From the IMG/VR virus record IMGVR_UViG_3300045988_183115: a DNA stretch of 64,000 nt. One strand, written 5' to 3'. The notes below the pieces were generated by a model that saw nothing but the letters and a program-made list of their open reading frames with translations, was not told where the DNA came from and did not search any database. Position 1 is the stretch's first letter; each line of letters begins with the position of its first letter. The stretch comes from a virus. Of this stretch, positions 1,517 to 58,737 are shown piece after piece. Both the position numbers and the translations under genes were made by a program.

Positions 1517-1622
1517 CCCCAAAAAGGTAGCAGTAAAGGTGTCATGGACGCACCCAGAATCTGTATGGCGAAGCCATATATATCTGATGCTCGGTAATTC
1601 AATTACCGATGTAGTTCACATG
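1400..1622 (+). ncRNA. putative TnpB-associated right-end RNA (omega/reRNA) overlapping tnpB 3' end and the IS right end
   Basis: By established TnpB biology the guide RNA scaffold derives from the tnpB 3' end plus RE. This stretch is GC-rich and contains the hairpin. Not verified structurally. Confidence 0.3.
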
Positions 1623-1692
1623 TTTTGTGTAATAAAAACTTCAATATTATTTTAGAAAGGAAGTTGCTAATATAGCAACAAGGTAGTAATTT

Positions 1693-2409
1693 ATGAACAA
1701 TAAAAATAACCCAATTAATTCATATAATATGTTGAGTAAACTGCCGGATATCAGACCAGTTCATTCTCTTATTATTATTTTTAATCTTGCACTTATTATA
1801 GGTGGACTTGTTTGCGAAATTATTTTTTACGGAACAGAAAATTTTGCAGGTGTAATTGCCAGCGGAATAATTGCGGGTTCAAATTTATTATGTTTTTTGA
1901 TTCTTAAAAATGTTATTAATTGGTACCCTCAGGCTAGATTTGAAATATATAATGAATATATTGATTTTAGCTATTTTGTGCCCGGAATTGACAAAATGAC
2001 AGATTATAAAGTTGAACAGATTGACCATATTAAAGAAACATTTGATGGTTTAATAGTAACAGGTATTATAAAACATAAACCTGCAGCAAAACTTAATTAT
2101 GGAGTACTTGATAAATATAAATTTCATATTGCAAATAAGGAATTAAAAAAGAAAATATTATCAGAAATGCAGGAATTCAAAAAAAGGCAATATATTAATG
2201 AGCTAAATAATTGTTTAGCTGATAAGCCAAAAGAAAAAAATAATGATTCAAATAATATAGATATAGTTACTGAATCTACTGAAATGCCTGATTTAGAACA
2301 AAATATAAAAATGGTTAAAGACGAAATGGCAAAAAAACTAAACGATTCTGATAGGATGGATATTACAATTGATAAACCAAATATAAAAGTAACAACTTCA
2401 ACAAAATAA
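1693..2409 (+). CDS. hypothetical membrane protein (2 TM helices, charged C-terminal half)
   Basis: 238-aa ORF with hydrophobic N-terminal segments. No recognizable domain. Confidence 0.55.
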   Translation: MNNKNNPINSYNMLSKLPDIRPVHSLIIIFNLALIIGGLVCEIIFYGTENFAGVIASGIIAGSNLLCFLILKNVINWYPQARFEIYNEYIDFSYFVPGIDKMTDYKVEQIDHIKETFDGLIVTGIIKHKPAAKLNYGVLDKYKFHIANKELKKKILSEMQEFKKRQYINELNNCLADKPKEKNNDSNNIDIVTESTEMPDLEQNIKMVKDEMAKKLNDSDRMDITIDKPNIKVTTSTK

Positions 2410-2427
2410 TAATTATTGCAATTAAAT

Positions 2428-2468
2428 AAGAAAATTCCATTCGACAATAGTCGATTGTGAGTAATTTA
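2428..2468 (+). repeat. degenerate partial copy of the 56-nt hairpin element family
   Basis: AAGAAAATTCCATTCGACAATAGTCGATTGTGAGTAATTTAG matches the core of the elements at 16129, 29060, 31135, 38435, 47556 and 49198. It lacks the 5' TATCGAAGAAT and 3' GTTCAT ends. Confidence 0.6.
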
Positions 2469-2476
2469 GATAGAAA

Positions 2477-2518
2477 AAGACTTAGTATGTATATAATATA
2501 TATCATACTAAGTCTTTT
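2477..2518. terminator. bidirectional rho-independent terminator between convergent genes
   Basis: Perfect inverted repeat AAGACTTAGTATG...CATACTAAGTCTT flanked by A/T runs on both strands. Confidence 0.7.
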
Positions 2519-2521
2519 TAT

Positions 2522-2920
2522 TTATTTATAAATTTTATTCCATTCTGAATTTTTACAGATTAAATCTATGTCATCATCAGACATATTCAACAACATTTTT
2601 ATTTCTTTTTTACCGTTTTCCGTAAAACACATAGCAGCTAAATATTGATCAAAAGACATCCATAATTTATGTTTCTTTAGTTTAGAAATAATAAATAATT
2701 TTGCATATAATTTATCCTTAATATTATTAGGCATTATATTAACAAATACATTGTTTTTTATTGCTAAATCGGTCATTACATTTATATTAACCACATCATT
2801 ATGAATATCTTTCCAATTAAAATGATTTTTTATATATTTAATAGACTCATTCTTTCCAACAAAAAACATTTTTTCGTTTCCAAATTCAATTGAAAAAATA
2901 TTAAGTTTGTTCATATTCAT
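2522..2920 (-). CDS. hypothetical protein (only convincing minus-strand gene in the window)
   Basis: 132-aa ORF with AAGGAGAG RBS on the minus strand upstream of its ATG (2921..2945). Convergent with 1693..2409. Confidence 0.6.
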   Translation of the reverse strand: MNMNKLNIFSIEFGNEKMFFVGKNESIKYIKNHFNWKDIHNDVVNINVMTDLAIKNNVFVNIMPNNIKDKLYAKLFIISKLKKHKLWMSFDQYLAAMCFTENGKKEIKMLLNMSDDDIDLICKNSEWNKIYK

Positions 2921-2996
2921 TTTACTCTCCTTAATTTTACAATATTTAATAATATACTATATATAAAATGAATTTACAAATTTATATCCAATTTTA

Positions 2997-3014
2997 TTTT
3001 TCTGACATATATAT
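2997..3014 (+). promoter_or_regulatory. conserved promoter-like motif, CTGACAT variant
   Basis: TTTTTCTGACATATATAT lies 45 nt upstream of the ATG at 3047. Confidence 0.45.
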
Positions 3015-3046
3015 TACATCAATTAATTAAAGGAGGCGTATTCAAA

Positions 3047-3247
3047 ATGATAGAACATATTGTTTTTAATGTGCAGGCAAATAAAACTTTATCTGATACT
3101 AATGAATCATTCTATGGATGCTGGACAAAAGGGCATACATATGAATGTATAGCATTTGGCGATTTCGTATCAGTAAGAAATGATTCTGGGATGTATACAC
3201 AATTTACAAAAGAAGCTTTCGAAAAATTTAAAGATAAAATTGCGTAA
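3047..3247 (+). CDS. hypothetical small protein
   Basis: 66-aa ORF with AAAGGAGG RBS. Confidence 0.55.
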   Translation: MIEHIVFNVQANKTLSDTNESFYGCWTKGHTYECIAFGDFVSVRNDSGMYTQFTKEAFEKFKDKIA

Positions 3248-3263
3248 TATATAAGGAGGATTT

Positions 3264-4550
3264 ATGAAACAGGCAGATATAAATACAATACCAAATCATG
3301 AATATTTGGAACTTAATTATGTTGCAGAAACAGCTACAGGTAAAGGTAATAATCAACAGATTATTATGCAGGTTAATGCCAATAATAAGAATGTTTTTGA
3401 TGTTACTGAAGGTAGAATTGGAATCAGGATAGGAAGGAACAGGCCAAGGACATATTCACTTCCTATGACTAATTGGGATTCTTTTTATTTGTCTAAGGTA
3501 AATAGAGGTTGGTTGCTTACAAAGACTCAAAAAATGGAGAAAAAAAAGATTACAAAAAAAGGTTTAAGTTTTAATGGCGGTACATATGCACAGACTGGAA
3601 TTTTCTCTGTTGATTCTATTATAACAAAACTGCTTTCATACGCTAATAAGGTTATTTCAGATAATTATTCAACTTCAGTTGAAGATATTTCAGATGAGAT
3701 GCTTGAATATGGTAATTCGATTTTGACTGAATTAGCTAAGAACCATGATTCTATGTCAATTGCAGAGTTTAATAATAAATTAAAAGTATTATATGCTGCA
3801 ATTCCTAGAAGAATGGATAATTTATCTAAACATTTGGCTAAAAGAAAGATTGAATTTGTTGATATCATTGACAAAGAGCAGGAACTGTTTGATATTGTGT
3901 ATTCTCAGGTAAGATCTAATAGTAATTTAGCTAAATATAACACTATGCCAACAGTTCTTCAGGCCTATGGACTTGAATGGAGACCTGTATCTGACGAAGA
4001 AGAGACTAAAATCAAGAAGCTTATGGGAGAAAATGCAAAGCAATATAAAAATGCTTGGAGAATCATTAATAAAAAGACCGAAAAGGCTTTCAATGAATAT
4101 TGTGCTAAAGAAAATTTAAGTGATGAAAATAATGGAATATCTCATTTATTTCATGGTTCAAGATCAGAAAACTTCTGGTCCATTATAACTAATGGTTTAA
4201 CAATAAATCCAGTTGGAGTTGTAACTAATGGAAAGATGTTTGGATTAGGTACATATTTTGCTAATAAGGCAAAAAAATCGATGGGATATACTTCAAGCTC
4301 CGGTTCTTATTGGACTCATGGTAGTGAAGCAATTGGATATTTAGGCATTTTCAAAGTGGCTACTGGTAAAACATATGATGTAACATCTGCTGAAAGTGAT
4401 TTAACTTATAATGTTTTACAACAGAGATGTCCTGGCGCTCATTGTACTTTTGCTCATGCAGGCCATAGTTTATGTAATGATGAAATTATTGTATATCAGG
4501 ATCAGCAAAGTACTATAGAATATTTTGTTGAATTTACAGCAGCTCAGTAA
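3264..4550 (+). CDS. PARP-like ADP-ribosyltransferase (WGR-like N-terminal domain + helical region + PARP catalytic domain)
   Basis: C-terminal half carries the PARP H-Y-E signature in the canonical order: HGSRSENFWSIITNGL, then GLGTYFANKAKKS, then EIIVYQ. N-terminus has a WGR-like segment (TEGRIGIRIGRN). RBS is AAGGAGGA. Confidence 0.7.
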   Translation: MKQADINTIPNHEYLELNYVAETATGKGNNQQIIMQVNANNKNVFDVTEGRIGIRIGRNRPRTYSLPMTNWDSFYLSKVNRGWLLTKTQKMEKKKITKKGLSFNGGTYAQTGIFSVDSIITKLLSYANKVISDNYSTSVEDISDEMLEYGNSILTELAKNHDSMSIAEFNNKLKVLYAAIPRRMDNLSKHLAKRKIEFVDIIDKEQELFDIVYSQVRSNSNLAKYNTMPTVLQAYGLEWRPVSDEEETKIKKLMGENAKQYKNAWRIINKKTEKAFNEYCAKENLSDENNGISHLFHGSRSENFWSIITNGLTINPVGVVTNGKMFGLGTYFANKAKKSMGYTSSSGSYWTHGSEAIGYLGIFKVATGKTYDVTSAESDLTYNVLQQRCPGAHCTFAHAGHSLCNDEIIVYQDQQSTIEYFVEFTAAQ

Positions 4551-4562
4551 GGAGGAAATTTT

Positions 4563-4706
4563 ATGAAAAAGAAAAATATATATGAATTAAAACGAGCAGG
4601 TATATGCTGCGAAGAAGAAATGAAAAAAGTATATAGATTTTCTCCATTGCCTCCTGAGGCAATCACTTTTATAAATAATTTACATCAGAAAAAAATTAAT
4701 AAATAA
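4563..4706 (+). CDS. hypothetical small protein (47 aa)
   Basis: ATG follows AAGGAGGAAATTTT. Short, so low confidence. Confidence 0.35.
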   Translation: MKKKNIYELKRAGICCEEEMKKVYRFSPLPPEAITFINNLHQKKINK

Positions 4707-4871
4707 TGATTGTGTAAAGCGTAGAATTAATTATTCTACGCTTTATTTATTTTAATTCTGTCATATTATTATTAGCTAAAAATAAAGGAGCTAATTATAT
4801 TTTTTATAAAAAGGGTTCAGCGGTAACGGTAAGCATGATCTTACTTAGTCACGTTGAACTCTTTTTTTAAT

Positions 4872-4889
4872 ATTATCTGTCATATATAT
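4872..4889 (+). promoter_or_regulatory. conserved promoter-like motif
   Basis: TTATCTGTCATATATAT lies ~42 nt upstream of the ATG at 4925. Confidence 0.55.
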
Positions 4890-4924
4890 ATTAATATAAC
4901 TTTTTTTGACTATAAGGAGGACCT

Positions 4925-6139
4925 ATGGATAGAGAACAAGAAAGATTAAATACATCACTTTTATGTGGTTGGTCAGTAATAACAATAACACTATTAGGCA
5001 TTTATTTTGGTGAAATGTTAAAACATGCTATATCACCACCATATTTTGCAATATTTGCTATATTAATTAGTATCCCGAATTTAACAGGGTGGTTGGTTTT
5101 TATTTATAATAAAAACTGGCTATTTTTAAAATATTTTGTAACATTCTCGTTTTTAATAATGTATACATTTACCTTATTTACAGGAAATACTGTTTTATGT
5201 TTTACTTATATATTCCCAATTATCCTGCTTTTAATTTTATATTATGATCCAACTTTAATTATAGTAACCGGGTTATTTTCGACAGTGTTGAATATTACAG
5301 CAATATTTATTAAGACATATAATAAAATTGATAAATCAGGTGGCAAAGACATGGAGATTCAACTTGCAATAATTATTTTATGCTTTGCAGCAGCATATAT
5401 TGTTTCAAAGTTTTATAAAAGAAATACAGACCTAAATTTGCAAAATACACAAACAATAATAAATCAAATAGAACAAATTAATAAAATGTCTCTCCAAACA
5501 GTTACAACTATAGCAAATATTATCGATGCCAGAGATAATTACACCAAAGGCCATTCAACCAGAGTAGCAGATTATACAGCCTTATTAGCATATAAATTAG
5601 GAATGAATAAAAATGAGATTGAAGATATTCATTCAATAGCACTATTGCATGATATAGGAAAACTAGGAATTCCGGATAGCATATTAAACAAACCAGGAAA
5701 ATTAACAAATGAAGAGTACCAAGTAATGAAGAACCACACAGTAATAGGCGGAAATATCTTAAAAGATATGTCAATGCTTAAGGACATTGATTTAGGAGCA
5801 AAATATCATCATGAAAGATATGACGGAAAAGGATACCCAGATGGCTTAAAGGGAGAACAAATACCTTATATTGCAAGAATTATTTCTGTAGCAGATGCCT
5901 TTGACGCAATGACAAGTGACAGAGTATATAGGAAACATTTAGATTCAATAATTGTAGTTAATGAGCTTGAAAAGGGTAAAGGTACTCAATTTGATCCTGT
6001 AATTGCAGATGCTATGTTAAGTTTAATTAAATCTGAAAAAATTAAAATGAATTATAATGCTTTACTTGAAGAAATAGATTTAGCAGAAAATTTAAACGAA
6101 TTGTATCCAGAGAAAGAATTTTATGATGCAACAGAGTAA
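4925..6139 (+). CDS. membrane-anchored HD-GYP domain phosphodiesterase (cyclic-di-GMP / cyclic dinucleotide hydrolase family)
   Basis: About 5 N-terminal TM helices. HD domain motifs are KGHSTRVADYT and IALLHDIGKLGIP. The HHERYDGKGYPDGL stretch is the HD-GYP signature. Confidence 0.85.
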   Translation: MDREQERLNTSLLCGWSVITITLLGIYFGEMLKHAISPPYFAIFAILISIPNLTGWLVFIYNKNWLFLKYFVTFSFLIMYTFTLFTGNTVLCFTYIFPIILLLILYYDPTLIIVTGLFSTVLNITAIFIKTYNKIDKSGGKDMEIQLAIIILCFAAAYIVSKFYKRNTDLNLQNTQTIINQIEQINKMSLQTVTTIANIIDARDNYTKGHSTRVADYTALLAYKLGMNKNEIEDIHSIALLHDIGKLGIPDSILNKPGKLTNEEYQVMKNHTVIGGNILKDMSMLKDIDLGAKYHHERYDGKGYPDGLKGEQIPYIARIISVADAFDAMTSDRVYRKHLDSIIVVNELEKGKGTQFDPVIADAMLSLIKSEKIKMNYNALLEEIDLAENLNELYPEKEFYDATE

Positions 6140-6279
6140 TGTTAGATTTAATAAAAAAAATGATAATAACTTTGTAAAATGCTCATATATTAGAAACAAA
6201 AAGATGCAATATGGCAGAAAGGAGAATTGCTTCTTCCCTTATCTGAAGATAAGGGATTCAGTGATTAATAAATATTATT

Positions 6280-7413
6280 ATGAAAACAATAGAAAAAATT
6301 AAAATACAAGATAATACAATAGAGCATACAGAAAAACAAACCAGTTTATACGCATATTTGTATAATAAATTTCAAAATAAAATAATGGCTATTAACCTTC
6401 TTATAATAATCACAATATTTGTTTTTGAATTATTATTTATACCAATACATATAATAATAGAAAAACAAACAATAAATATATTATCTTATATTATATTGAA
6501 TGTATTTACACCTACTACATCTAATTTAATAATATGGTTTACCGGTAGACAAATCATAAGAAAATATCAAGATAATATTATACCAGAAATATATGAAGCC
6601 ATGCCTTTGTATATTTTAACTTTAATTATAGTGGTTTCAATTATCATTCATTATAATTATCCGGTATTATATACATTAATAGCCTGCCCAATTTTTATGT
6701 GTATTGTATATGGTAGTAACAAGGTTAATTGGCAATTATTTTTGATAAGTCAATTTGAAATTATTACAATTTCATTATCATCAATCTCTGAATTAAATAA
6801 GTTACCATCAAATTATTTAATATATATGTTTTTATCATGTATCATAACAATATTTGCATATATTTATTCGAGACTTGTTATTAAATATGAGAAAGAAAAA
6901 GAACTTAAACTGGTTTTATCTGAAAATAGAAATGCGCAATTATTAAAAGAAATTTCACAAGATGGATTAACTCGATTAGATAATTATAGGTCTCTTTTTA
7001 ATACAACAAAGAAATGGATATCATATAAGAAAAAACTTTATTTTTGTATAATAGATATAGATGATTTTAAATCAGTTAACGATACATATGGACATGAATT
7101 TGGAAATACTGTTTTAATTAATTTAGCTAAGGAACTTCAAAATATTAACCAATCAAATATTTTTGTCGCCAGATATGGAGGTGAAGAATTCGGAATATTA
7201 TTTGCAGATTATGAATATACTGAGGCGTATAATATAATTAACGATATCAGAATTAAATTCAACAATATTAAATATGAGAATATTCCGCAGCAATTTACTT
7301 TCTCTGGAGGAATAACAGAATATAAAAAAAATAATACCGTTCATGATTTATTTGATGCAGCAGATAAAAATTTATATAAAGCTAAAAGAACAGGCAAAAA
7401 TAAAATTATGTAA
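6280..7413 (+). CDS. membrane-anchored GGDEF-domain diguanylate cyclase
   Basis: About 6 N-terminal TM helices. GGDEF domain is DIDDFKSVNDTYGHEFGN followed by the active-site RYGGEEFGILF (GGEEF). No promoter motif of its own, so probably co-transcribed with the HD-GYP gene. Confidence 0.85.
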   Translation: MKTIEKIKIQDNTIEHTEKQTSLYAYLYNKFQNKIMAINLLIIITIFVFELLFIPIHIIIEKQTINILSYIILNVFTPTTSNLIIWFTGRQIIRKYQDNIIPEIYEAMPLYILTLIIVVSIIIHYNYPVLYTLIACPIFMCIVYGSNKVNWQLFLISQFEIITISLSSISELNKLPSNYLIYMFLSCIITIFAYIYSRLVIKYEKEKELKLVLSENRNAQLLKEISQDGLTRLDNYRSLFNTTKKWISYKKKLYFCIIDIDDFKSVNDTYGHEFGNTVLINLAKELQNINQSNIFVARYGGEEFGILFADYEYTEAYNIINDIRIKFNNIKYENIPQQFTFSGGITEYKKNNTVHDLFDAADKNLYKAKRTGKNKIM

Positions 7414-7426
7414 AAATTTGCAGTCA

Positions 7427-7444
7427 AAAATCTGTCATATAATA
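7427..7444 (+). promoter_or_regulatory. conserved promoter-like motif with no ORF downstream
   Basis: AAATCTGTCATATAAT. The next 200 nt contain no credible ORF and end in a terminator hairpin. Confidence 0.45.
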
Positions 7445-7645
7445 ATTAAATCAATATTGTATTATAATTTACAATGTGATAAAATATTGTCGGTATATAT
7501 TAGGCATACATATATGCCTCCTCAAAGACTAGCACTTTTGTTAAAGCCGGTAATTTTGTTGTAAAAATACACTTTAATAGAATTTTACAATTCTACTAGC
7601 AACTTTGATTAAAGCTCTCACCTTAATGGTGGGAGCTTTTTGTTA
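7445..7645 (+). ncRNA. candidate small non-coding RNA (promoter-to-terminator unit without ORF)
   Basis: Bounded by the motif at 7432 and the terminator at 7617..7645. Contains the perfect palindrome GGCATACATATATGCC (7504..7519). No tRNA-like features. Confidence 0.3.
7617..7645 (+). terminator. rho-independent terminator
   Basis: GCTCTCACCTTAATGGTGGGAGC followed by TTTTTG. Confidence 0.55.
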
Positions 7646-7662
7646 TTCTCTGTCATATTTAT
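7645..7662 (+). promoter_or_regulatory. conserved promoter-like motif
   Basis: TTCTCTGTCATATTTAT lies ~36 nt upstream of the ATG at 7692. Confidence 0.55.
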
Positions 7663-7691
7663 TGTGTAAATAAATATAAAGGAGAAAAATT

Positions 7692-10025
7692 ATGAGTTCT
7701 AAAAAACAACCACTTTATAATGATGATAAAAATATTCCACTAAAAAAACAGAAAAATCATCTTTTAACCATATTTAAAATTTTTATATTGATTATTATGA
7801 TAGTCATATTATTATCTTTAATATCATTATCAGTATTTTATATTAAATTTTACAGTAAATTCAAATTGGCACAGGAAAATGCATATGAGTCATTACAAAA
7901 TATGAACCAAAATGAATTTAATAAAGAACTGAATACATATTTTTATTATGATGATGGCACATTAATGGCAGCTAATATTAACGGCTCTTATGAATATGTT
8001 AATATCAGCGATGTCAGTGATTATATAATACAAGGATATATTGCTGTGGAAGATAAGAATTTCTATATTCATAAAGGTATTGATGCTAAAGCATTGTTAC
8101 GAGCTTCTTTGGCTTATATAAAGAATAAAGGGAAAATAACTCAGGGCGGCAGTACAATCACACAACAAGTTGTAAAAAATATTGTTATAAAAAATTCAGA
8201 CAAAACAATAGATAGAAAACTTACTGAAATGATAGCATCACTTGAAATGGAAAAGTCATATTCTAAAGAACAAATACTTGAAATGTATTTAAACTCTAAT
8301 TTCTACGGCAGCAATTGTTACGGAATTCAGGCAGCTTGTAAATATTATTTTGGATGTGATGCATCTGATGTAACAATATCTCAGGCCGCAATGTTAATAG
8401 GTATTTCAAATGCCCCTACAAAATATAATCCTGAAACAAATTATGAATTAGCAATATGTAAAAGAAATCAAGTCCTTAATACAATGTATAATCAGAAAAT
8501 AATTACAGAAAAACAATACAATGAAGCATTAGAAGATCCTCTTGATTTAATTTTATATAAAGAAACATCTGATTTACCAACATCTTATGAATTTTCATAT
8601 ACACTTAAATGTTCTATTGAATATCTTATGGAAATAAATGGATTTAATTTTAAATACCTTTTTGATTCTTCAGAAGATGAGCAAGATTATATTAATCAAT
8701 ATAATAAAATATACTCTAAGTACAAAGAAGAAATATTAACTGGAGGATACAGGATATATACTTCAATAGATAAAGATAAGCAGCTTGAGCTATTACAAAT
8801 TTCAAAAAATGTTTTATCACAATATGATAACAGCTTATCCGAGGATGGGCGGCATCTTCTTCAAACATCATCCATGTGTATTGATAATGAAACTGGATAT
8901 GTTAGAGCAATTATAGGTGGACAAGAAGATAATGAATATATAAATAGAGCATATCAATCTCCTAGACAACCAGGCTCTTCCATTAAACCAATATTAGATT
9001 ATGCTCCGGCTTTTGATATTTTAGACTATCATCCATCATCTATGATTTTGGATTCTCCACTTGAGGGTAAATATCAGCCTAAAAATCATGATGGATATTA
9101 CAGAGGCAATATTTCAGTAAGAACAGCTTTATTACAATCAGTCAATACAACGGCTGTTAAAACATTAATGAATGTTGGAATAAATAATTGTTTAGAGTAT
9201 TTAAATAAAATGCACTTTTATAATATTTCATATGAAGATAATAATAATGCTGCAATTGCCATAGGTGGTTTTACAAATGGTGTAACAGTAGAAAACATGA
9301 CTAAAGCATACAATGCATTAGCTAATAATGGTAAATACAATAATAATACATGCATCAAACATATGTTGCGTCAAAATGAAGAAATATATCAAAATAAAGA
9401 AGATATTCAAGTATATAAAAAAGGCACCGCTTATATGATGACAGATTGTTTAATTTCAAATTTTACAGAAGGATACGTCAAAAATTATCAAATAGATAAT
9501 CAGATTTGTGCAGGAAAAACTGGAACAACGAATGATAACAAGGACTCTTGGCTATGTGCATATACACCATATTACACAACATGTATATGGACCGGATATG
9601 ATATTCCTAAAAATTTTGATAATGGTTCAGCAATATGTGGAGAAATATGGAAGCAGTTTAATGAATATTTGCACCAGAATTTAGATAATAAGGAATTTGA
9701 GAAACCTGAAACTATTTATGAGCATTATATTGACTGGGAAGGGAAAAAATGTAATTATAATTCTGGTAAAAAAGATTTTTTTCAAATCGATTTTCCTAAT
9801 TATGAAAAGGCCAGTTTTTGTTACAAAAAAGCATATGATGCTTTAAAAGAAGCTGAGAATACTAATATTTCAGATTATAAAACTGCTAATACTGTTATAA
9901 AAAGTCTTGATGATGTTATTATCGATAAGAACGCATTAACTGATCAACAAGAAATTGATGCTATAAATAAATACTGGGATGAAATATATAATAATATTTT
10001 AATAAAAAGACAACAGTTTGGATAA
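7692..10025 (+). CDS. bifunctional class A penicillin-binding protein (GT51 transglycosylase + transpeptidase) with N-terminal TM anchor
   Basis: GT51 motifs are [20 protein letters not shown] and [10 protein letters not shown]. Transpeptidase motifs are SSIK (SxxK), SVN (SxN) and KTGTT (KTG). Confidence 0.85.
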
Positions 10026-10043
10026 ATCTTTAACATATACTGT

Positions 10044-10061
10044 TTTTTCTGTCATATATTT
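10044..10061 (+). promoter_or_regulatory. conserved promoter-like motif
   Basis: TTTTTTCTGTCATATATT lies ~56 nt upstream of the ATG at 10111. Confidence 0.55.
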
Positions 10062-10110
10062 TTTATCAATAAATTTAATGGAGAATAACTCCAAGAAGGG
10101 AGTCTTATAT

Positions 10111-10398
10111 ATGAGACATTTTAAGAAGGCAAAAGAAGAATTAATTCCTTATATTAACAAAATTCTTGAAAAAAAGAATATTGATTATTTCTATAGAGAT
10201 AACGAAATAATTGTAGATTTATCCGGGAATCAGTTTCATAAGATTGTTACACGAGCTAAGTGCGAAATGCTTAATGAAAAGGATGGGTTGGATAACAGAC
10301 ATACATATTATGTATCCAAAGCAGAAAATATTGCCCGCTTAATGAGCGACAATCCGGAATATGAATTCTTTATAGAATATCCATATAATCCAGATTAA
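10111..10398 (+). CDS. hypothetical protein
   Basis: ATG preceded by AAGAAGGGAG. The ORF track's longer 10018 start lacks an RBS and overlaps the promoter motif. Confidence 0.55.
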   Translation: MRHFKKAKEELIPYINKILEKKNIDYFYRDNEIIVDLSGNQFHKIVTRAKCEMLNEKDGLDNRHTYYVSKAENIARLMSDNPEYEFFIEYPYNPD

Positions 10399-10506
10399 AT
10401 AATTTTGAAAATTAGAACTATTTGTTTAGCTACCTTAAAATGTCTTTATAGACTTTTTAGGGTAGCTTTTTTTGTTCGCACATTGCGAAGAAAGGAACGC
10501 TGCACT

Positions 10507-11154
10507 ATGGCAGAATTAAATGAAATTATGTCAGACAAAAAGGCTGGCACATATAAAAAGGATTTTTTTAATGTAGCATCATATATCGAAAAATTTTATG
10601 ATGCAGAAGAATATCTTTTCAATTTCGAAGCTAATGATTTGGTTGAAACCAGATCAGGAGCAAATGATTATGTTGAGGAACATACTCCTCATGTGCTACA
10701 ACATATAGCTCCAGAAATTTCATGGGCTATAAATAAAATTTCTGAAGCTACAAAAGAAAAGAAAGGAATTAAAGGCGCTAAGAATGGTACCTTCCATCCT
10801 ACATGGTTTGATTCATTAGAAAGTGCATCTGAAGCATTAGAGAGAGTTTTAATTGCTTCAAATAATACCTCTATTATTTCTAAAATTCAGAACTGGTGTG
10901 AGGATAGAGATATTTATTACAACGACAGAAGACATAATCGTTTAGTTATAGATATAGTATCTAATACGGTTATAGGAAAAGGAATTGTAAAAGGTACAAA
11001 TTATGATATTCCTTTTGACTGTCATGGACTTCATATTGTTTTAGAATATACAATTTCTAAAAAAGATGGAGAATTTGCAGTCTATGATATGTATCCATAT
11101 TTCACAGAAGAGGATTGGAGCATAATTAAAAAAGCTAAAAATAAAAAATCTTAA
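10507..11154 (+). CDS. hypothetical protein
   Basis: ATG at 10507 (MAELNEIM) preceded by AAAGGAAC. Upstream extension to 10405 is unlikely. Confidence 0.5.
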   Translation: MAELNEIMSDKKAGTYKKDFFNVASYIEKFYDAEEYLFNFEANDLVETRSGANDYVEEHTPHVLQHIAPEISWAINKISEATKEKKGIKGAKNGTFHPTWFDSLESASEALERVLIASNNTSIISKIQNWCEDRDIYYNDRRHNRLVIDIVSNTVIGKGIVKGTNYDIPFDCHGLHIVLEYTISKKDGEFAVYDMYPYFTEEDWSIIKKAKNKKS

Positions 11155-11156
11155 GC

Positions 11157-11188
11157 AAAAACAGTCATCATTTGATGGCTGTTTTTTA
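11157..11188 (+). terminator. rho-independent terminator
   Basis: AACAGTCATCATTTGATGGCTGTTTTTTAT. Confidence 0.55.
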
Positions 11189-11210
11189 TATTGTTTTTCA
11201 AAAAATATTT

Positions 11211-11228
11211 TTTAACTGTCATATATTT
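11211..11228 (+). promoter_or_regulatory. conserved promoter-like motif
   Basis: TTTAACTGTCATATATTT lies ~46 nt upstream of 11268. Confidence 0.55.
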
Positions 11229-11267
11229 ATTAATTAAGATTTTAATTTAAGGAGTTAAATAGATATT

Positions 11268-11882
11268 ATGTTTATTAATGTACCATGTATTGAAAATACC
11301 AAAAAAGAAAATGGACTGTATTCATATGAATTAAAATTCCCAGATATCATACAAGAAAACAAAAAGCATATAATACAAAATTCAAGACTTTCTGAAAATA
11401 ACAAAATTGATTTAAGTGGAACACTTGCATATAACAATAATTATTATAATTTATTTTCAGATAAAAACAGATTATTCGTTTTTAATTTTCAATCAAGTGA
11501 TTTTTATATTATTGATCAGGAAGAAAGTTATTATGAACGAAAAAAATATTTCTATAGAACAATTAGAGATGGAGAAAATGTCTATTCATTATATGAATCA
11601 AAATTATTTAATAAAAATCTTATGTGTATTAAAAAAAATAATAAAATTATTGTTGTTGTATTACAGTCAATTAATCATGAAACAAAAATATACAATAAAT
11701 TCTTTTGCTTAGAAAAGAATAAAAGAAATATATCTTATAATTGCAAAATTAATAACGATGAAAATAATTTTATTATTTATGCGCTAATCACAATAGGACA
11801 CTATGATTGCGTAAAATATTCTAGTAAATTCATAGAATTACAAGACACAAGTAAATGGATAGAATGGTTTTCTAAACACTAA
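11268..11882 (+). CDS. hypothetical protein
   Basis: 204-aa ORF with AAGGAG RBS. The overlapping ORF 11416..11712 in another frame is judged spurious. Confidence 0.55.
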   Translation: MFINVPCIENTKKENGLYSYELKFPDIIQENKKHIIQNSRLSENNKIDLSGTLAYNNNYYNLFSDKNRLFVFNFQSSDFYIIDQEESYYERKKYFYRTIRDGENVYSLYESKLFNKNLMCIKKNNKIIVVVLQSINHETKIYNKFFCLEKNKRNISYNCKINNDENNFIIYALITIGHYDCVKYSSKFIELQDTSKWIEWFSKH

Positions 11883-11948
11883 TTTAAACAATCACAGCAT
11901 TTAAGATTTTAATTTAAGAAACAGTATCATATTTTTTATCTTATTTTA

Positions 11949-11966
11949 TATTTCTGTCATTCAATA
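11949..11966 (+). promoter_or_regulatory. conserved promoter-like motif
   Basis: ATATTTCTGTCATTCAAT lies ~38 nt upstream of 11998. Confidence 0.5.
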
Positions 11967-11997
11967 TATATGATAACAAAGCCAAAGGAGAAAAATT

Positions 11998-12213
11998 ATG
12001 AAGAAGAGATATCAAAAAATGATAGGTGACAGAAAAATATTAATGCCAATTACAGATGCACAACAATTAATGGTAATAGCAGATGATTTTTGTGTATTAA
12101 ATGATAACAGAACTCAGGATTCTATTATTAATATTATTTGCGGAAGCAAAACATATAATGATGGATTGAGAAAAGTAATCGATATTATTGATGCAACTGT
12201 ATTGGCATCTTAA
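11998..12213 (+). CDS. hypothetical protein
   Basis: 71-aa ORF with AAAGGAGA RBS. First gene of a 4-gene unit without internal promoter motifs. Confidence 0.5.
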   Translation: MKKRYQKMIGDRKILMPITDAQQLMVIADDFCVLNDNRTQDSIINIICGSKTYNDGLRKVIDIIDATVLAS

Positions 12214-12225
12214 GGAGGTAATTTT

Positions 12226-12738
12226 ATGTATAAATATTATGCTTTAAAAGATACGATAGAGGAAATCCCGGATTCAATTGAGCCAATAGCTTTTCAAAAT
12301 TTTAATGAAGCTAAAGATATCATTATAAAGAAGCATGAATCTGAAAAGTCAGAAAGAATAACTGCATTTGGATTTTTATTATCCAAAACTATTATTTCTA
12401 AGGCTGATTTAGAAAAGTATAACTGGTATGATGCAGGTATAGTAGACCGTCATACATGTGTATCAGAGCTTCCAAGTATAATACAAGAAGCTTTAAGAAG
12501 AGAAATAAATCAATTTTATAAAAACTCTGATAGCAATTATAGTATGAATCGTGAGAATTTTCTGAGTTTTTACGGAAGTTTTAAACTTGAAGATTTACAT
12601 AGAATGATGCCAAGAATTGCTAATAAATATAATTTGATTTCCGATAAGGACAAATCACCAATAGAAAAATTATTTGATGATAATATAAGAATTGAAAATA
12701 TTGAACATACAATTACTTCTTCGAATTCATCAATTTAA
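12226..12738 (+). CDS. hypothetical protein
   Basis: 170-aa ORF with AAGGAGG RBS. Confidence 0.55.
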   Translation: MYKYYALKDTIEEIPDSIEPIAFQNFNEAKDIIIKKHESEKSERITAFGFLLSKTIISKADLEKYNWYDAGIVDRHTCVSELPSIIQEALRREINQFYKNSDSNYSMNRENFLSFYGSFKLEDLHRMMPRIANKYNLISDKDKSPIEKLFDDNIRIENIEHTITSSNSSI

Positions 12739-12768
12739 AAAACAACTAGAAAAAAGGAGAATACAATA

Positions 12769-13128
12769 ATGGTAACAACAGCAACAGTGTCAACAAATGC
12801 AATAAATAAAACAAATAAGGTAGGACTCAAAAGATGTCCATTTTGTAGAAAGTGGGACTCAATGAGTATTATCCCTATTAAAACTAATGGCTTTAAGATT
12901 ACTTGCGATTACGCAAAAGGAGGCTGTGGAGCCAGCGGTGGAATGGGTAAGACTAAAGATGAAGCAATAAAAATGTGGAATCTAAGAGTGCCTATTGATC
13001 ATTTACGTCATGATGTTTCTGAAAAATCATATCATAATAGTTTAATGAATTGTGAAGTAATTCCTTCTACGGAAATATATGATGCATTAAATGATGAACA
13101 AGAAAAATATTTAGAAATAAATATTTAG
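12769..13128 (+). CDS. Lar-family-like restriction alleviation protein (zinc-ribbon)
   Basis: RCPFCRKW...CDYAKGGCGASGG...KDEAIKMWNLR follows the Lar-family pattern C-P-F-C-G ... C-G-A ... E-A-I-x-x-W-N-x-R. Assignment is by motif only. Confidence 0.45.
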   Translation: MVTTATVSTNAINKTNKVGLKRCPFCRKWDSMSIIPIKTNGFKITCDYAKGGCGASGGMGKTKDEAIKMWNLRVPIDHLRHDVSEKSYHNSLMNCEVIPSTEIYDALNDEQEKYLEINI

Positions 13129-13149
13129 GATGCAAATTAATGATTTAAA

Positions 13150-13177
13150 ACAGGGTATATATTGCCCTGTTTTTTAT
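13150..13177 (+). terminator. rho-independent terminator
   Basis: AACAGGGTATATATTGCCCTGTTTTTTA. Confidence 0.7.
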
Positions 13178-13178
13178 T

Positions 13179-13196
13179 TTGTTCTGTCATATATAT
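13179..13196 (+). promoter_or_regulatory. conserved promoter-like motif
   Basis: TTTGTTCTGTCATATATATT lies ~65 nt upstream of 13255. Confidence 0.55.
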
Positions 13197-13254
13197 TATA
13201 TAGAATTAATTTTCTATCAAACAATATAAGATTAATATATTTTGGAGGATTTAT

Positions 13255-14574
13255 ATGATAACAAAAGTTGAATTTAAGGAAAATAGTAATAAAAACAATA
13301 ATGTAAAAAAAAGAGCAAATAGGAAATATCCTAAAGAAATTTTAAAAGCATTTAAATATGATTATAACAAATGTGATATTTTTTATAAAACAATGTATGG
13401 ATATATGTGCGGCAGGCATATATTAGATTTATCACCATTACATATTTATAATTTACAAAATGGATATAATGCAAAAAAGAATGCCCTCATTAATTTATTT
13501 AAATATGATGATGTTGTTAAATTAAATATTGAAAATTTACCTACACGCTCTATTATCGAATTAGCCGATTTAGCTTATGGAATGATTTATAAGGGTTTGG
13601 TATTTAAATTAAAAGGATTAGATTTAAATTATTTTATGACTCCTGACAAAATTATTAATGCCGGTAATGTCATAAAAAATCATAACGGCACTGAAATTTA
13701 TGGAGGAAATACAATAAGAGATTTCTTAGCTCATTATAGTGTTAATGAAAAAAAATCAAATCTTACAGAAGATGAATTAAATAATATAACAAATTTTTTA
13801 AATGAAAGAATAAATATATATAAAAATTACGGTTCAATAAAAAGTATCCCTTTTTCTGTGTTCAGATATTCTTTATATATAAAGACTGATGAAAACAAAA
13901 CCATTATTGTCCCTGATATAGAAGCAAAACATAATTTACAAAAAATATTAGGTGTGGAATTATATGAAAAATATCATATTAAGGAACTTAGTATGATAAA
14001 AGCGACATATTTTGAGGCAAAAATTATTAAACAGATAAAAAAAACATTAACAAAAGAAATGAATTCTGTAGCAAATAATCTTTTGATTGATATTCCAGAG
14101 GGAAAATTAAAGGAACACGCTATTTTAGCATCGTCTATTGATAATGTAACAGCAATAACTGGTAGTGGAATTATTTGTAATATTCTTGAATTTATGTCAA
14201 ATAATATTATAAATATTAAAAAATTGTATGCTGAGCCTGAAAGATTATTTACCGCTGAAGAACAGAAGTCATTATTCCAAATTGAATATACAGCTTTGCG
14301 TATGAATCAATTTGAAGCAGGACATAATGTTTTATGGATTAATGATATTTCAAAGGCTATTAAAGGTAAATATGCAAATTTAAAGTCATTGCAATTATGC
14401 ATAGAATATAATTTTGCCCCTGTTATTAATGATAAGTCAATTTTAGATTACAAAATCAGTTATGATGTACTTTATAATTTTTATGTTCAGTATATAATTG
14501 GTTTTGATAAAAACCAAATAATAGAAAATAATGAAGAAATTATGACTGCATTATCTAATATTATTACTCATTAA
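13255..14574 (+). CDS. hypothetical protein (439 aa)
   Basis: Long ORF with GGAGGA RBS. No recognizable motif. Confidence 0.6.
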   Translation: MITKVEFKENSNKNNNVKKRANRKYPKEILKAFKYDYNKCDIFYKTMYGYMCGRHILDLSPLHIYNLQNGYNAKKNALINLFKYDDVVKLNIENLPTRSIIELADLAYGMIYKGLVFKLKGLDLNYFMTPDKIINAGNVIKNHNGTEIYGGNTIRDFLAHYSVNEKKSNLTEDELNNITNFLNERINIYKNYGSIKSIPFSVFRYSLYIKTDENKTIIVPDIEAKHNLQKILGVELYEKYHIKELSMIKATYFEAKIIKQIKKTLTKEMNSVANNLLIDIPEGKLKEHAILASSIDNVTAITGSGIICNILEFMSNNIINIKKLYAEPERLFTAEEQKSLFQIEYTALRMNQFEAGHNVLWINDISKAIKGKYANLKSLQLCIEYNFAPVINDKSILDYKISYDVLYNFYVQYIIGFDKNQIIENNEEIMTALSNIITH

Positions 14575-24372: not shown

Positions 24373-25467
24373 ATGGGAAGACCACCAAAGAATATTAATA
24401 CCGAAACACAGGGTAACGAATCAATTTCAAATGACAAATTAAAAGCACTTGATGCTGCAATGTTAGAAATTGAAAAGACCTATGGCAAAGGTTCTGTCTT
24501 TAAATTAGGTGATACAAAGAAATTAAATGTTGAAACATTTTCATCAGGTTCCTTAGCACTGGATCAGGCTTTAGGCGGAGGAATTCCAAAAGGAAGAATT
24601 ATAGAAGTATTTGGCCCGGAATCAAGTGGTAAAACAACTTTAACCTTGCATATGATTGCAGAAATACAAAAAAATGGTGGAATTGCCGGGTTTATTGATG
24701 CTGAACATGCATTAGACCCTGTTTATGCTTCTAATTTAGGTGTGGATATAAATAATTTATATATTTCACAGCCAGACAGCGGAGAACAGGCTTTAGAAAT
24801 AGCAGAAACAATGGTAAGATCCGGAGCTTTAGATTTGGTTGTAATAGATTCTGTAGCAGCTCTTGTACCTAAGGCAGAAATTGATGGAGAAATGGGGGAT
24901 TCACATGTTGGATTACAAGCAAGACTTATGTCGCAGGCTTTAAGGAAACTGACTCCCGTTGTAAGTAAAAGTAATTGTTCAGTTATTTTTATTAATCAGT
25001 TAAGAGAAAAGGTTGGAATTATGTTTGGCAACCCAGAAACAACAACTGGGGGACGAGCATTAAAGTTTTACTCTTCTGTAAGAATTGATGTACGAAGAAT
25101 TGAGTCAATTAAGGAAGGCGGAGCTATTGTTGCTAACAGAACAAAAGCAAAGGTAGTTAAAAATAAAATAGCTCCTCCATTTAAGGAGGCAACATTTGAA
25201 ATTTCATTTGGTAAAGGTATAGACAAGAATGGTGAAATAATTGATTTAGCTGTTGAACATGGATTTATCAATAAAACTGGAGCTTGGTTTACAGATGCAG
25301 AAGATTCTAGTTTAAGATGGCAGGGCAGAGCAAATGCTAAATTATATATAGAAGAGCACTCGGAATATAAAGATAAATTAGAAACTTTAATCAGAAAAAG
25401 ACTTAAGGGAGAAGACGACATTTCACCCTTTATTGAAAAAAATATAAAAAATGTAATTGATGAGTAA
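24373..25467 (+). CDS. recA: RecA recombinase
   Basis: Walker A is [18 protein letters not shown] is present. L1/L2 region [15 protein letters not shown]. Length 364 aa. Colinear with bacterial RecA. Confidence 0.95.
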
Positions 25468-40608: not shown

Positions 40609-41658
40609 ATGAGAATAAACAAGATTAAGACTAATGTAACAGTATTAAACAAGGTAGACCGTAAGAATTACCAGGTAATTAATGTTGATGGTTCAGGTGA
40701 TTCCATTAAAGGAACAGCCAAGTTAATCAAGGAGGATGGTTCACTTGATGATTCGGTTACTGCAGTAATTACAGCTAATAATGCAATAGCTTACAAGCTG
40801 ATTGATGATCCTAATATTCCAGATGTTCCAACTGGATATACTGTAAAAAACGGAATTTTGCTTAAGAATGGAGTCCCTGCTACAGAACAGGGTTCACTTG
40901 TAATTAATAGTATTATTGCAGGTGTTGCAGGAAGACTTATTTTATCTGTCGAACCAAGAGAACCAAGAGAAGGTTATTTCGATATTATGTCATATACAGT
41001 TGAGTCAGATAAGTTTAATAAGCTTATCAGAAGATCTATTCCAGAAGTTACAATCATTGCTTCTTCTGAGAATAAGATGCAGTTATATATGACATATTCA
41101 AGAACTTATACTAAGGATAAGAAGCTTGAAGATGGAACTATTGAAACAGATAATATCTTTGATGCTGCAGCAATCATGTTATATGATGTAATGTCTGATG
41201 CAGTTGTTGATCATGTTTCTTTTGCGGAGCCAATTAAGGCTGTAGATTCTGTTAAGGCACCTAATGAAACAATTTTCGCAATTGAAGCAGATACAGTAGT
41301 CGATTCTGACGGAGTTATCAAGGAAGATGATTATATTACATTAAGATTTGTTGCTTCTGAAGGTCATTCATTAAGTCTTTATAAGACAACAGCAATTGAC
41401 AGTGTTCCAGAATCAATTTCAAAGGGATATAATGCAAGCCTGATTAAAGCTTCTTCAGGCAAGTGGTATATTAATGATATCACATATAAGATCCCAGATA
41501 AGATAGTTGCTGAGCTTGCAGGTTATAATGTAATTGTGGATATTACATCTAAGGATCATGTTACAAGAATTTCTCTTGCTAATACAAATACTATGGAGAT
41601 AAAGACTCTTGTTATTTCTGAAACAAGAGATAGAGGAGACATTATAACCATAGAGTAA
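40609..41658 (+). CDS. hypothetical protein, paralogue 1 of a tandem pair
   Basis: 349 aa. N-terminus (NVTVLNKVDRKNYQVINV...IPDVPTGYTVKNGILLKNGVPATEQGSLVINSI) and C-terminus (DHVTRISLANTNTMEIKTLVISETRDRGDIITIE) are clearly homologous to 41791..42942. Confidence 0.65.
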   Translation: MRINKIKTNVTVLNKVDRKNYQVINVDGSGDSIKGTAKLIKEDGSLDDSVTAVITANNAIAYKLIDDPNIPDVPTGYTVKNGILLKNGVPATEQGSLVINSIIAGVAGRLILSVEPREPREGYFDIMSYTVESDKFNKLIRRSIPEVTIIASSENKMQLYMTYSRTYTKDKKLEDGTIETDNIFDAAAIMLYDVMSDAVVDHVSFAEPIKAVDSVKAPNETIFAIEADTVVDSDGVIKEDDYITLRFVASEGHSLSLYKTTAIDSVPESISKGYNASLIKASSGKWYINDITYKIPDKIVAELAGYNVIVDITSKDHVTRISLANTNTMEIKTLVISETRDRGDIITIE

Positions 41659-41790: not shown

Positions 41791-42942
41791 ATGAGAGAAA
41801 ACAAAATTTTAGAAAATGTAACAGTATTAAACAAGGTTGACAACAGACAGTATTTAATTACATCTGTTACCGATGGCGTAGGAACGGCTTGTCTTTTAGA
41901 AAATGGTGAAGTAAACGAGGATATATCTGTTATGATATCATCATCTAACGCAATTGCTTTTAGACTTATCAGCAATCCTAATATTCCAGATATTCCAGAT
42001 GGATATTCAGTAGAAGACGGAATTTTACTTAAGGATGGTGTTGCTGCTACACAGCAGGGTTCACTGGTAATTAAGAGTATCGTTACATCTGTTCCAGGTA
42101 AGCTTTTATTATCTGTATTACCTAGAGAAAACACAACAGAACATGATGATTATATTGATTTATTTGCTTATAAGCCGGATGAGGATAAGTTTAAGAAACT
42201 TATTCCAGTTTCAATTCCAATGCCGGAAGTTATAGGTGTATGTGACAAATATGTGATACTAAAGACTTCCTATACACACTTTGAAACAAAGAAGGATTTT
42301 AATGGAAAAGATATTTTCGCTGAATATTTTGATAATGCTGAAATTATCGTTTATGATGGTGCAAAGAATTATATTTCAAGTTATTTAATGCTTGATGCAC
42401 CAATAAATAATGTCATTACTGTAAGAAATTCAATGAATGTACCTACATGGGTCATTGAATATACAGAGCAGGTATGTGATAATAATTATTATAATCCTGA
42501 TTGTGATTGTGGTTATGACTGCGAAAATGATTGTGGAGATTATGATGAATGCAATAATTGTGATTATCATTTAGATACAATTACTAATACTAAGGAATTA
42601 ATCGAAATGGATCATATTAAAGCAGAAATGATTGCTCTTAATGGTGGTACATTAATGAGGCTCAATAGTATTAATATCCCTTCACATATTAAATCTGTTT
42701 CAATTGGTTGGAATAGTGCTGATTTTATCAGACTTGAAGACAGAATTATGATTGGAGAGTATGTTGATAAAATCATTACTGATTCAAAGATAATGTCTGC
42801 AGTTGAAGGATATGATTGGATTGTCGATACAAGTAAGGAAGATAATGTAACAAGAATTGCTCTTGCAAACGACAATATGGAAATCAAGTATATTGTTATT
42901 ACTGAAACATCAGATAGAGGAGACGTTGTTAAGGTAGAATAA
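41791..42942 (+). CDS. hypothetical protein, paralogue 2 with Cys/Asp-rich insertion
   Basis: 383 aa, homologous to 40609..41658 at both ends. Contains the extra segment CDNNYYNPDCDCGYDCENDCGDYDECNNCDYHLD. Confidence 0.65.
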   Translation: MRENKILENVTVLNKVDNRQYLITSVTDGVGTACLLENGEVNEDISVMISSSNAIAFRLISNPNIPDIPDGYSVEDGILLKDGVAATQQGSLVIKSIVTSVPGKLLLSVLPRENTTEHDDYIDLFAYKPDEDKFKKLIPVSIPMPEVIGVCDKYVILKTSYTHFETKKDFNGKDIFAEYFDNAEIIVYDGAKNYISSYLMLDAPINNVITVRNSMNVPTWVIEYTEQVCDNNYYNPDCDCGYDCENDCGDYDECNNCDYHLDTITNTKELIEMDHIKAEMIALNGGTLMRLNSINIPSHIKSVSIGWNSADFIRLEDRIMIGEYVDKIITDSKIMSAVEGYDWIVDTSKEDNVTRIALANDNMEIKYIVITETSDRGDVVKVE

Positions 42943-58465: not shown

Positions 58466-58737
58466 AGGTAGTGGGCTTCTGTTAAATGGTTCACCAGACT
58501 AAGTATTCAGAAATGGATACTACGATATTTAGGTTATGATACCTTCGGTTGACGCAACAGACCGTTGCTCTATCGTACATATTTAAGTTAGGTCAGAGTA
58601 AGAACAGCCTTGTGATATGTACATAAAAGCCTTTATATCATTGTCGAGTTGAAGTCGGAACAATCGTATGGTAAACAGTACGACAAAGTACGCATCACCT
58701 ACTATTAAGTAGAGTATTTATAAGGAGGAACTTATTT
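58466..58737 (+). ncRNA. putative IscB omega RNA scaffold (IS left-end region upstream of iscB)
   Basis: A 270-nt GC-enriched, ORF-free stretch lies immediately 5' of iscB and begins with an imperfect hairpin. This is the position where IscB omega RNAs are known to be encoded. No tRNA features. Confidence 0.5.

Follow-up and report, generated by a model that had tools for sequence, protein, structure and literature searches.

The 64-kb stretch of DNA analyzed here (the window; 64,000 nucleotides of IMG/VR virus record IMGVR_UViG_3300045988_183115) encodes near its left end a PARP-like ADP-ribosyltransferase (ART) of 428 aa, carried on what looks like a large conjugative element. The gene, recognized from the listing of open reading frames (ORFs) and from profile matches, occupies positions 3264..4550 on the + strand, starts with ATG and is preceded by a ribosome-binding site, AAGGAGG, 4 nt 5′ of the start codon. 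The protein was found to match the catalytic profile PF00644 over aa 249-380 (68 bits against a cutoff of 26.7; E 1e-18), a match far above chance, and catalytic fragments of human PARP1 were its top phmmer matches among PDB sequences (E 4e-8). In the phmmer alignment, H297, G298, Y331, K338, S339 and Y342 pair with PARP1 H862, G863, Y896, K903, S904 and Y907, respectively, given the numbering offset that we assume for chain 1uk0. E407, in NDEIIVY, is presumably the counterpart of E988 in the YNEYIVY segment of PARP1. The motifs of the protein are HLFHGSRSENFW (H297), GLGTYFANKA (Y331) and NDEIIVYQ (E407), and, near the N-terminus, VTEGRIGIRIG (E49-G53). The initial annotation had called a PARP-like ADP-ribosyltransferase with an H-Y-E triad from the strings HGSRSENFW, GLGTYFANKA, EIIVYQ and EGRIG, all of which are found in this ORF, and the call is borne out by the PF00644 match, the PARP1 alignment and the conservation described below.

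Conservation was examined in a window clade, made up of 124 distinct sequences that share at least 45% identity with the window protein, and in a sister set of 64 more distant sequences. None of the 188 distinct family sequences lacks H297, Y331 or Y342, and only two, both gapped at that column, lack E407. The triad and the NAD-site positions are likewise invariant across an alignment of 26 family members, and at least 121 of the 124 clade sequences, together with all 64 of the sister clade, retain H, G, S, Y, K, S, Y and E of the catalytic and NAD-binding sites. An AlphaFold2 model built from the family alignment (pLDDT 84.9; pTM 0.79) consists of three parts, namely a beta-sheet with one helix (aa 14-87), an all-helical region (aa 114-222) and an ART domain (aa 237-425). 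The ART fold is present in this confident model together with the NAD-site residues. The ART catalytic domain thus delimited (aa 237-425; 3972..4538, +) contains H297, Y331 and E407 as well as G298, S299, K338, S339 and Y342. The gene is accordingly classified, from its sequence, as encoding a PARP-family ADP-ribosyltransferase with an intact H-Y-E triad. That the protein is instead a catalytically dead or purely structural relative is very improbable, the retention of the tested catalytic and NAD residues in at least 121 of 124 sequences being the opposite of the pattern of a pseudo-enzyme. A scan of the protein against NCBIfam gave one weak match without meaning, and a PADLOC scan of the gene gave none.

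N-terminal to the catalytic domain lies a divergent WGR-type domain (aa 13-92; 3300..3539, +), in which T-E-G-R-I-G replaces (Y/W)-G-R-(V/I)-G. Its homology to WGR was established via intermediate sequences. Full-length homologues at 34-39% identity pass the Pfam WGR cutoff of 22 bits at the same N-terminal position, with scores of 24.1-31.5 bits (Paenibacillus, 31.5; a Chondrinema plasmid, 26.2; Cellulophaga phage phi4:1, 26.2; two viral contigs, 25.2 and 24.1). When N-terminal profiles of the window clade and of the WGR-positive homologues were aligned by hhalign, they matched over 71 columns (probability 96.7%; E 3.3e-10), TEGRVG being paired with EYGRVG and RGY with KGY. The WGR-positive profile matches the WGR structures of PARP2 (E 2e-3) and 2ra8_A (E 4e-4), and the structural model of the N-terminal domain matches 2ra8_A and the WGR structures of PARP1 and PARP3. 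These comparisons identify the N-terminal domain as a homologue of WGR by descent. The model places a helical domain (aa 114-222; 3603..3929, +), the predicted equivalent of the regulatory/autoinhibitory helical domain (HD) of PARPs, between the WGR-type and ART domains. Its helices pack on the ART domain in the manner of PARP1-4: chains containing both HD and ART (8sx1_A, 3c49_A and 3kcz_A) align with ~280 residues, and ART-only chains with ~200.

In PARP1 and PARP2, the aromatic residue of the WGR motif contacts the terminal nucleotide of a DNA break, and the Arg couples the domain to the helical domain. Within the window clade, the first motif residue is E in 93 of the 124 sequences and D in 20, and in none is it Y, W or F; the Gly position is occupied by G (66), S (49) or A (8), Arg is kept in 117, and the N-K-Y/F-Y motif has shrunk to a lone invariant Asn. 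The 64 sister-clade sequences, in contrast, have Y in 61 and W in 2, G in 63 and R in 63, with N-K-Y/F-Y conserved. Described bacterial PARPs have Y, W or F at the first position of the motif (PMC5966428). The pattern in the window clade suggests that the allosteric link has been kept and that end recognition has been altered or lost. Because the aromatic residue is replaced throughout the clade, DNA-end sensing of the WGR kind is not to be assumed. The WGR-like N-terminus of the initial annotation therefore stands as homology traced through intermediates, but not as a match to the Pfam WGR profile nor as a canonical motif, the aromatic position being taken mostly by Glu or Asp.

The PARP gene is predicted to be a stand-alone accessory gene in a small transcription unit ending at a terminator. 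A candidate sigma-70-like promoter (TTTACA-16-TATTTT; 2973..3000, +) was picked up by a consensus scan as a weak match at 9 of 12 positions, and promoter-like sites in the region are no commoner than in shuffled sequence. It is followed by a 66-aa ORF (3047..3247, +) with a strong ribosome-binding site, AAAGGAGG, which ends 16 nt upstream of the PARP gene, is also present in the 98%-identical contigs described below and has no match in Pfam, PHROGs or PADLOC. This ORF is probably co-transcribed with the PARP gene. A 47-aa ORF (4563..4706, +) between the PARP gene and the terminator is called as a gene in related contigs and may not be a real gene. As partners of PARP, neither small ORF is conserved in other clade members. 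The unit is closed by an intrinsic-terminator-like hairpin (4714..4746, +), a 14-bp stem followed by a T-rich tail; two such sites were found against 0.7 expected from shuffles. Downstream lie genes for an HD-GYP phosphodiesterase (4925-6139) and a GGDEF cyclase (6280-7413). The initial placement of PARP beside second-messenger genes is thus correct as to position, whereas the hairpin separates these genes from the PARP unit; the cyclic di-GMP (c-di-GMP) genes are neighbors that are not obviously on the PARP transcript. Across 4925-10025, the membrane-anchored HD-GYP and GGDEF proteins are followed by a class A penicillin-binding protein, PBP1A (777 aa). Proteins for c-di-GMP breakdown and synthesis together with a penicillin-binding protein are unusual cargo for a plasmid or a phage.

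The nature of the carrier was judged from related contigs. The identical PARP protein is encoded on contigs of 302 and 351 kb, and the far end of the window was found on a contig of 327 kb. Three contigs, L001, L002 and L016, are 98.3% identical to window positions 1620-14539, and on the left side of L001 and L002 lie genes for a 982-aa VirD4/TraG-type coupling protein (domains T4SS-DNA_transf, TrwB and TraG-D_C), a NERD protein and a Mob_Pre relaxase. In these 98.3%-identical contigs, the relaxase gene (105.5 bits) is divergently oriented and starts ~3 kb before the PARP gene, the coupling protein and relaxase together lying 3-9 kb upstream of it. The corresponding genes fall just beyond the left edge of the window, where the window has an insertion sequence: an IS200/IS605 unit occupies 1-1516 (TnpA fragment, 7-246; TnpB, 221-1516), homology to L001 and L016 begins at 1620, and the unit replaces the relaxase-leading sequence of those contigs. 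The coupling protein matched 1846 plasmid records, 1193 of them typed as conjugative; its best match is a 353-kb megaplasmid of Ruminococcus albus, and its plasmid relatives are annotated as VirD4-like, of the CD1115 family. The phage collection yielded 37 matches, 32 of which are "Bacteriophage sp." records; the eight phage matches listed all come from human faeces, are 4-30 kb long and have no annotation.

No capsid, portal, terminase or tail gene was recognized in the window with Pfam, applied to ORFs of at least 55 aa other than the IS genes and three short ORFs, or with PHROGs, applied to ten ORFs. Virion or packaging genes were also absent from the Pfam-annotated 10-kb flanks, including that beyond the right edge, and a megablast comparison of 9.6 kb of window sequence with phage genomes returned nothing. 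Because a coupling protein and a relaxase adjoin and virion genes were not recognized in the ~85 kb examined, the carrier appears to be a plasmid-like conjugative element of low GC content and roughly 300-350 kb, not a phage. Its host is probably a Lachnospiraceae-like member of the Clostridia, and contig labels alone suggest an origin in human gut metagenomes. Conjugative megaplasmids of the gut exceeding 300 kb have been found misfiled in collections of huge phages (PMC12934698, a 2026 preprint). Assignment to the "Hodor" megaplasmids of that report was tried and rejected, since Hodors have 45-47% GC (PMC12934698) and the window has 23-37%, mostly 25-31%.

The initial annotation had regarded the enzyme as phage-encoded and as a candidate for host takeover or counter-defence. 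Phage carriage is made less likely by the VirD4-like coupling protein and Mob_Pre relaxase of the 98.3%-identical contigs and by the lack of a recognized virion gene, and for host takeover or counter-defence no direct evidence was obtained, PADLOC included. A phage PARP that ADP-ribosylates host proteins or nucleic acids early in infection would fit several observations: a 95-kb IMG/VR contig classed as viral encodes the identical protein, about 80 large viral contigs encode homologues, PHROG 23333 spans aa 20-424, and isolated phages such as Cellulophaga phi4:1 encode a WGR-bearing homologue. In addition, the top BFVD match is a phage ART (TM-score 0.79-0.82), and distant replication genes (DnaE, RecJ and RlaP) are common to the window and viral contigs. 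However, identity to the viral-clade homologues is no more than 32-42%, and these have a different WGR motif and a macrodomain partner; the coupling protein, located 3-9 kb from PARP together with the relaxase, is overwhelmingly plasmid-borne (1846 plasmid against 37 phage records); no virion or packaging gene was recognized in the window or its flanks; megaplasmids are known to occur in viral databases (PMC12934698); and nothing points to any host target. Phage takeover is thus considered unlikely.

The position of the gene near the relaxase raises the alternative that it belongs to a conjugative leading region, being expressed on entry into the recipient and serving establishment or anti-defence by protecting the incoming DNA or disarming defence. 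In L001, PARP is the fifth or sixth ORF past the relaxase-proximal intergenic region, and the first ~30 ORFs of conjugative elements are enriched for anti-defence genes (PMC11541004); a weak Lar-like gene (12769-13128) and an orphan methylase occur in the same same-strand block. A search for an oriT or nick site, however, returned only AT-rich imperfect inverted repeats, and the block runs divergently from the relaxase gene. With oriT between the two and the relaxase gene entering last, the strand transferred would, by the logic of PMC11541004, be the sense strand of these genes, which would therefore not be oriented for transcription from incoming single-stranded DNA. The leading-region reading was downgraded because the gene orientation would fail this requirement. 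Moreover, the main text of PMC11541004 makes no mention of PARP or ADP-ribosylation, and other clade members do not lie beside relaxases within the 20 kb examined. On balance, such a role seems rather doubtful.

The gene at 12769-13128 encodes a small zinc-ribbon protein, whose L001 counterpart weakly matches Lar restriction-alleviation proteins.

The initial statement that PARP homologues are uncommon in bacteria and their phages is right for their fraction of all proteins, but not in absolute terms: an exhaustive HMMER search of 1.84 billion representatives gave 4418 matches at E<=1e-3, 1937 at E<=1e-10 and 705 at E<=1e-30, the last being clusters at 50% identity, and descriptions of bacterial and phage PARPs go back to 2014 (PMC4245714, PMC5966428). 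Nearly all of the top 150 matches of this search are end-to-end matches of ~390-450 aa. An indexed search gave 1629 relatives at E<=1e-3, the best 120 of which have ~360-430 aa and PF00644 alone in precomputed Pfam annotation, and a scan of reference genomes gave only 6 loci. Members of the window clade were found in metagenome-assembled genomes of Blautia and Lachnospiraceae and on many metagenome contigs, where they lie in long same-strand arrays of mostly unannotated genes. Comparison of the clade loci revealed neither a macrodomain partner nor a small flanking ORF that is conserved; one member, L015, has a PARG gene 5.6 kb downstream of PARP. Superfamily 1 (SF1)/UvrD-like helicases are located within 5 kb of the PARP gene in five of eight distinct clade contexts. 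A topoisomerase and a DNA methylase lie on either side of it in L005, an NAD-dependent ligase occurs in the context of L102, and orphan methylases, DUF5688, DUF3990 and toxin-antitoxin pairs are also recurrent.

One gene of these contexts encodes a UvrD-like helicase of ~920-1000 aa with a long N-terminal extension (window, 33024-35945; L005, 2489-5488; L096, 13035-15809; L102, 6096-9005). It lies within 5 kb of PARP in several contexts and adjoins the PARP gene on the Butyrivibrio proteoclasticus megaplasmid pCY360, the window copy being located 28 kb from PARP. Identity to the window copy is 50% for L005 and 36% for pCY360, and the L102 copy was assigned by Pfam domains only. Separately, the window contains a paralogous gene pair (40609-41658 and 41791-42942), the second member of which has a Cys- and Asp-rich insertion. 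Both paralogues have homologues in L005 by BLAST (26% and 36% identity), and a 326-aa ORF directly upstream of PARP in L103 (8685-9665) is a putative homologue, its N-terminus resembling the pair by eye.

The sister clade on viral contigs differs in its gene context. It was found on about 80 IMG/VR contigs of 5-206 kb, with 32-42% identity to the window protein. In 72 of 95 loci, a ~145-aa gene lies directly upstream of PARP on the same strand with a median overlap of 13 nt, and two further loci have fusions. This gene encodes a TARG1/OARD1-type macrodomain, its profile matching the structure of human OARD1 (4j5r; E 3e-36); among the IMG/VR loci (L017-L095), the pair is exemplified by L017, with the macrodomain at 9518-9955 and PARP at 9968-11188. 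Around the pair are genes for DnaB, a Toprim primase, PolIII-alpha, an NAD+-dependent ligase, a RecJ-like DHH protein, an AAA_33-HD kinase-like protein, ThyX and NrdD. The sister-clade pair is thus predicted to constitute a compact writer-eraser within a replication and repair module.

Macrodomain followed by PARP recalls the gene order of DarG-DarT. In keeping with this, the PARP could be a defence or abortive-infection effector that senses foreign or damaged DNA and consumes NAD+ or modifies targets against a competing phage, with the sister macrodomain, encoded upstream of and overlapping PARP, acting like an antitoxin. The gene occurs on mobile elements among toxin-antitoxin pairs, and an architecture of sensor, gate and ART would suit a trigger-dependent NAD+ consumer. 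Nevertheless, the gene has no PADLOC match, the window clade lacks an antitoxin-like partner and yet is widespread and conserved, and the sister clade lies within phage replication modules, not defence islands. An abortive-infection function is thus regarded as improbable.

The reading that we favor, with moderate confidence, is that the window protein is a three-domain NAD+-dependent ADP-ribosyltransferase, gated by its helical domain and carried on a conjugative element, whose DNA transactions it serves. By analogy with PARP1-3, HaPARP and CdPARP, the helical domain would most likely block the active site for as long as the N-terminal domain has no ligand bound, and the opened enzyme would then ADP-ribosylate itself or nearby protein or nucleic-acid targets. 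In the relatives, the trigger is broken DNA; in the window clade, it may differ, because the aromatic residue that stacks on the DNA end is replaced and the Arg kept. The likeliest role would be sensing or marking of DNA ends or intermediates during replication, repair or establishment of the element. Such a DNA-transaction role is favored on two grounds: the genes of the clade repeatedly have SF1 helicases, a topoisomerase, a ligase and methylases as neighbors, and the sister clade lies inside a replication and repair module that has an eraser of its own.

Several results weigh against this reading. In contrast to the PARP catalytic profile, matched at 68 bits, the Pfam WGR profile (PF05406) proposed for the N-terminus gave no match to the protein even at E<=10, and the clade N-terminal profile found no WGR chain among PDB sequences. 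The clade-wide loss of the WGR aromatic and of N-K-Y-Y speaks against classical recognition of DNA ends. The protein also gave no match to PF02877 (PARP_reg), as reported for many bacterial PARPs, including a "Clostridiales" clade (PMC5966428). Neither a TARG1-like macrodomain nor PARG was found in a six-frame translation of the window, and its ORFs include no Macro or PARG match in Pfam; with no such eraser in the 64 kb, a reversible poly(ADP-ribose) cycle is therefore not evident there. As to the carrier, ~85 kb of the ~330 kb element, about a quarter, was examined, so that a prophage or virion module may lie elsewhere; replication-initiator, partition and type IV secretion system (T4SS) channel genes were not seen directly in these ~85 kb, no test having been aimed at them; and IMG/VR lists a 95-kb fragment of the element, encoding the identical protein, as viral.

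A bolder and distinctly less probable interpretation is that the window clade is a re-wired PARP that has lost both the aromatic residue and the eraser. Ordinary DNA breaks would cease to activate it; the trigger would be some other signal peculiar to giant conjugative elements, for example a partner protein, an adduct of relaxase and DNA or a single-stranded intermediate, and the enzyme would serve as a one-way ADP-ribosylating effector in establishment or in conflict between elements. The phage sister would represent the ancestral writer-eraser module for break signaling, operating with an NAD+-dependent ligase. If so, the sister module would be to prokaryotic mobile elements what PARP-dependent strand-break repair is to eukaryotes.

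Independently of that interpretation, three observations are new here: an (E/D)-(G/S)-R subfamily that lacks an eraser partner, its occurrence on giant elements of conjugative type and the phage pair of PARP and TARG1-like macrodomain. The subfamily, large (at least 124 distinct sequences) and previously unseparated, offers a natural experiment on the gating of PARP by its sensor, and appears to ride very large plasmid-like conjugative elements of gut Clostridia, not phages. In the sister clade of large phages, the translational coupling of PARP to a TARG1-type hydrolase, with a ligase, a polymerase and RecJ alongside, suggests a testable writer-eraser system linked to DNA breaks. The basic classification of the protein is unchanged by these observations, which are useful and will be unsurprising to a specialist.

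The remainder of the window contains varied cargo. It encodes a primase zinc ribbon, FEN, RecJ and two UvrD-like helicases, and further an N6/N4 methylase, a guanylate kinase, a flotillin and CAAX proteases. RecA of full bacterial type (Pfam RecA, 455 bits; 24373-25467) and the element's own sigma-70 family factor (55214-56242) are also present. The alpha subunit of DNA polymerase III (DnaE) is distributed over three ORFs (43054-44895, 45785-46543 and 52093-53778); the first gap contains an HNH_3 endonuclease ORF (45104-45622), and the second ~5.5 kb of unrelated genes (RlaP nucleotidyltransferase, FEN and DUF3232). No intron or tRNA accounting for the split was found by Rfam or ARAGORN, and the three-piece DnaE is either a split functional enzyme or a decayed gene. 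A HEARO RNA (Rfam RF02033, 109.8 bits; 58446-58659, +) lies directly 5′ of a 419-aa ORF with RRXRR and HNH domains (58738-59997, +), a layout that we take to be that of an IscB-type OMEGA nuclease and its guide RNA. The sequence at 10405-11154 weakly matches the toxin domain of the bacterial CdiA-CT RNase A-like type (24.7 bits, below cutoff).

How does the window protein compare with known systems? Bacterial and phage PARPs with WGR, helical and ART domains and an H-Y-E triad were already established (PMC4245714, PMC5966428, PMC8120803). CdPARP of Clostridioides difficile and HaPARP of Herpetosiphon show DNA-dependent auto-PARylation (PMC5966428, PMC8120803), and a biological function or target is known for no bacterial or phage PARP (PMC8120803). 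The window protein shares with the described bacterial PARPs a length of ~400-450 aa, the order WGR, helical domain and PARP_cat, the H-Y-E triad, a helical domain often missed by Pfam as PARP_reg (PMC5966428) and a sporadic, horizontally transferred distribution, one described member residing on a Lachnospiraceae megaplasmid. It differs from them in that its clade lacks the motif aromatic and often has Ser in place of Gly, in that it falls under the Pfam WGR threshold and in having no PARG or macrodomain gene nearby. pCY360 (361 kb, typed MPF_T for its mating-pair formation system, with T4SS genes) also encodes a PARP, listed in PMC8120803, but this BpPARP is only ~31% identical to the window protein over aa 140-425. 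Human PARP1, PARP2 and PARP3, with their WGR-HD-ART core (PDB 4dqy, 3kcz and 3c49), have the same catalytic and NAD-site residues, whereas identity is 17-20%, the window protein is without zinc fingers, BRCT and the WGR aromatic, and nothing points to an HPF1-like cofactor for it. The macrodomain-coupled phage PARPs (Cellulophaga phage phi4:1 gp031, PHROG 23333, the about 80 IMG/VR contigs and UniProt A0A8D9PE85) differ in keeping Y/W-G-R and N-K-Y/F-Y, in passing the Pfam WGR profile and in being adjoined by replication/repair and macrodomain partners, none of which adjoin the window gene. They are nonetheless full-length homologues of the window protein, with 28-42% identity, the same H-Y-E triad and the same fold (TM-score 0.79-0.82).

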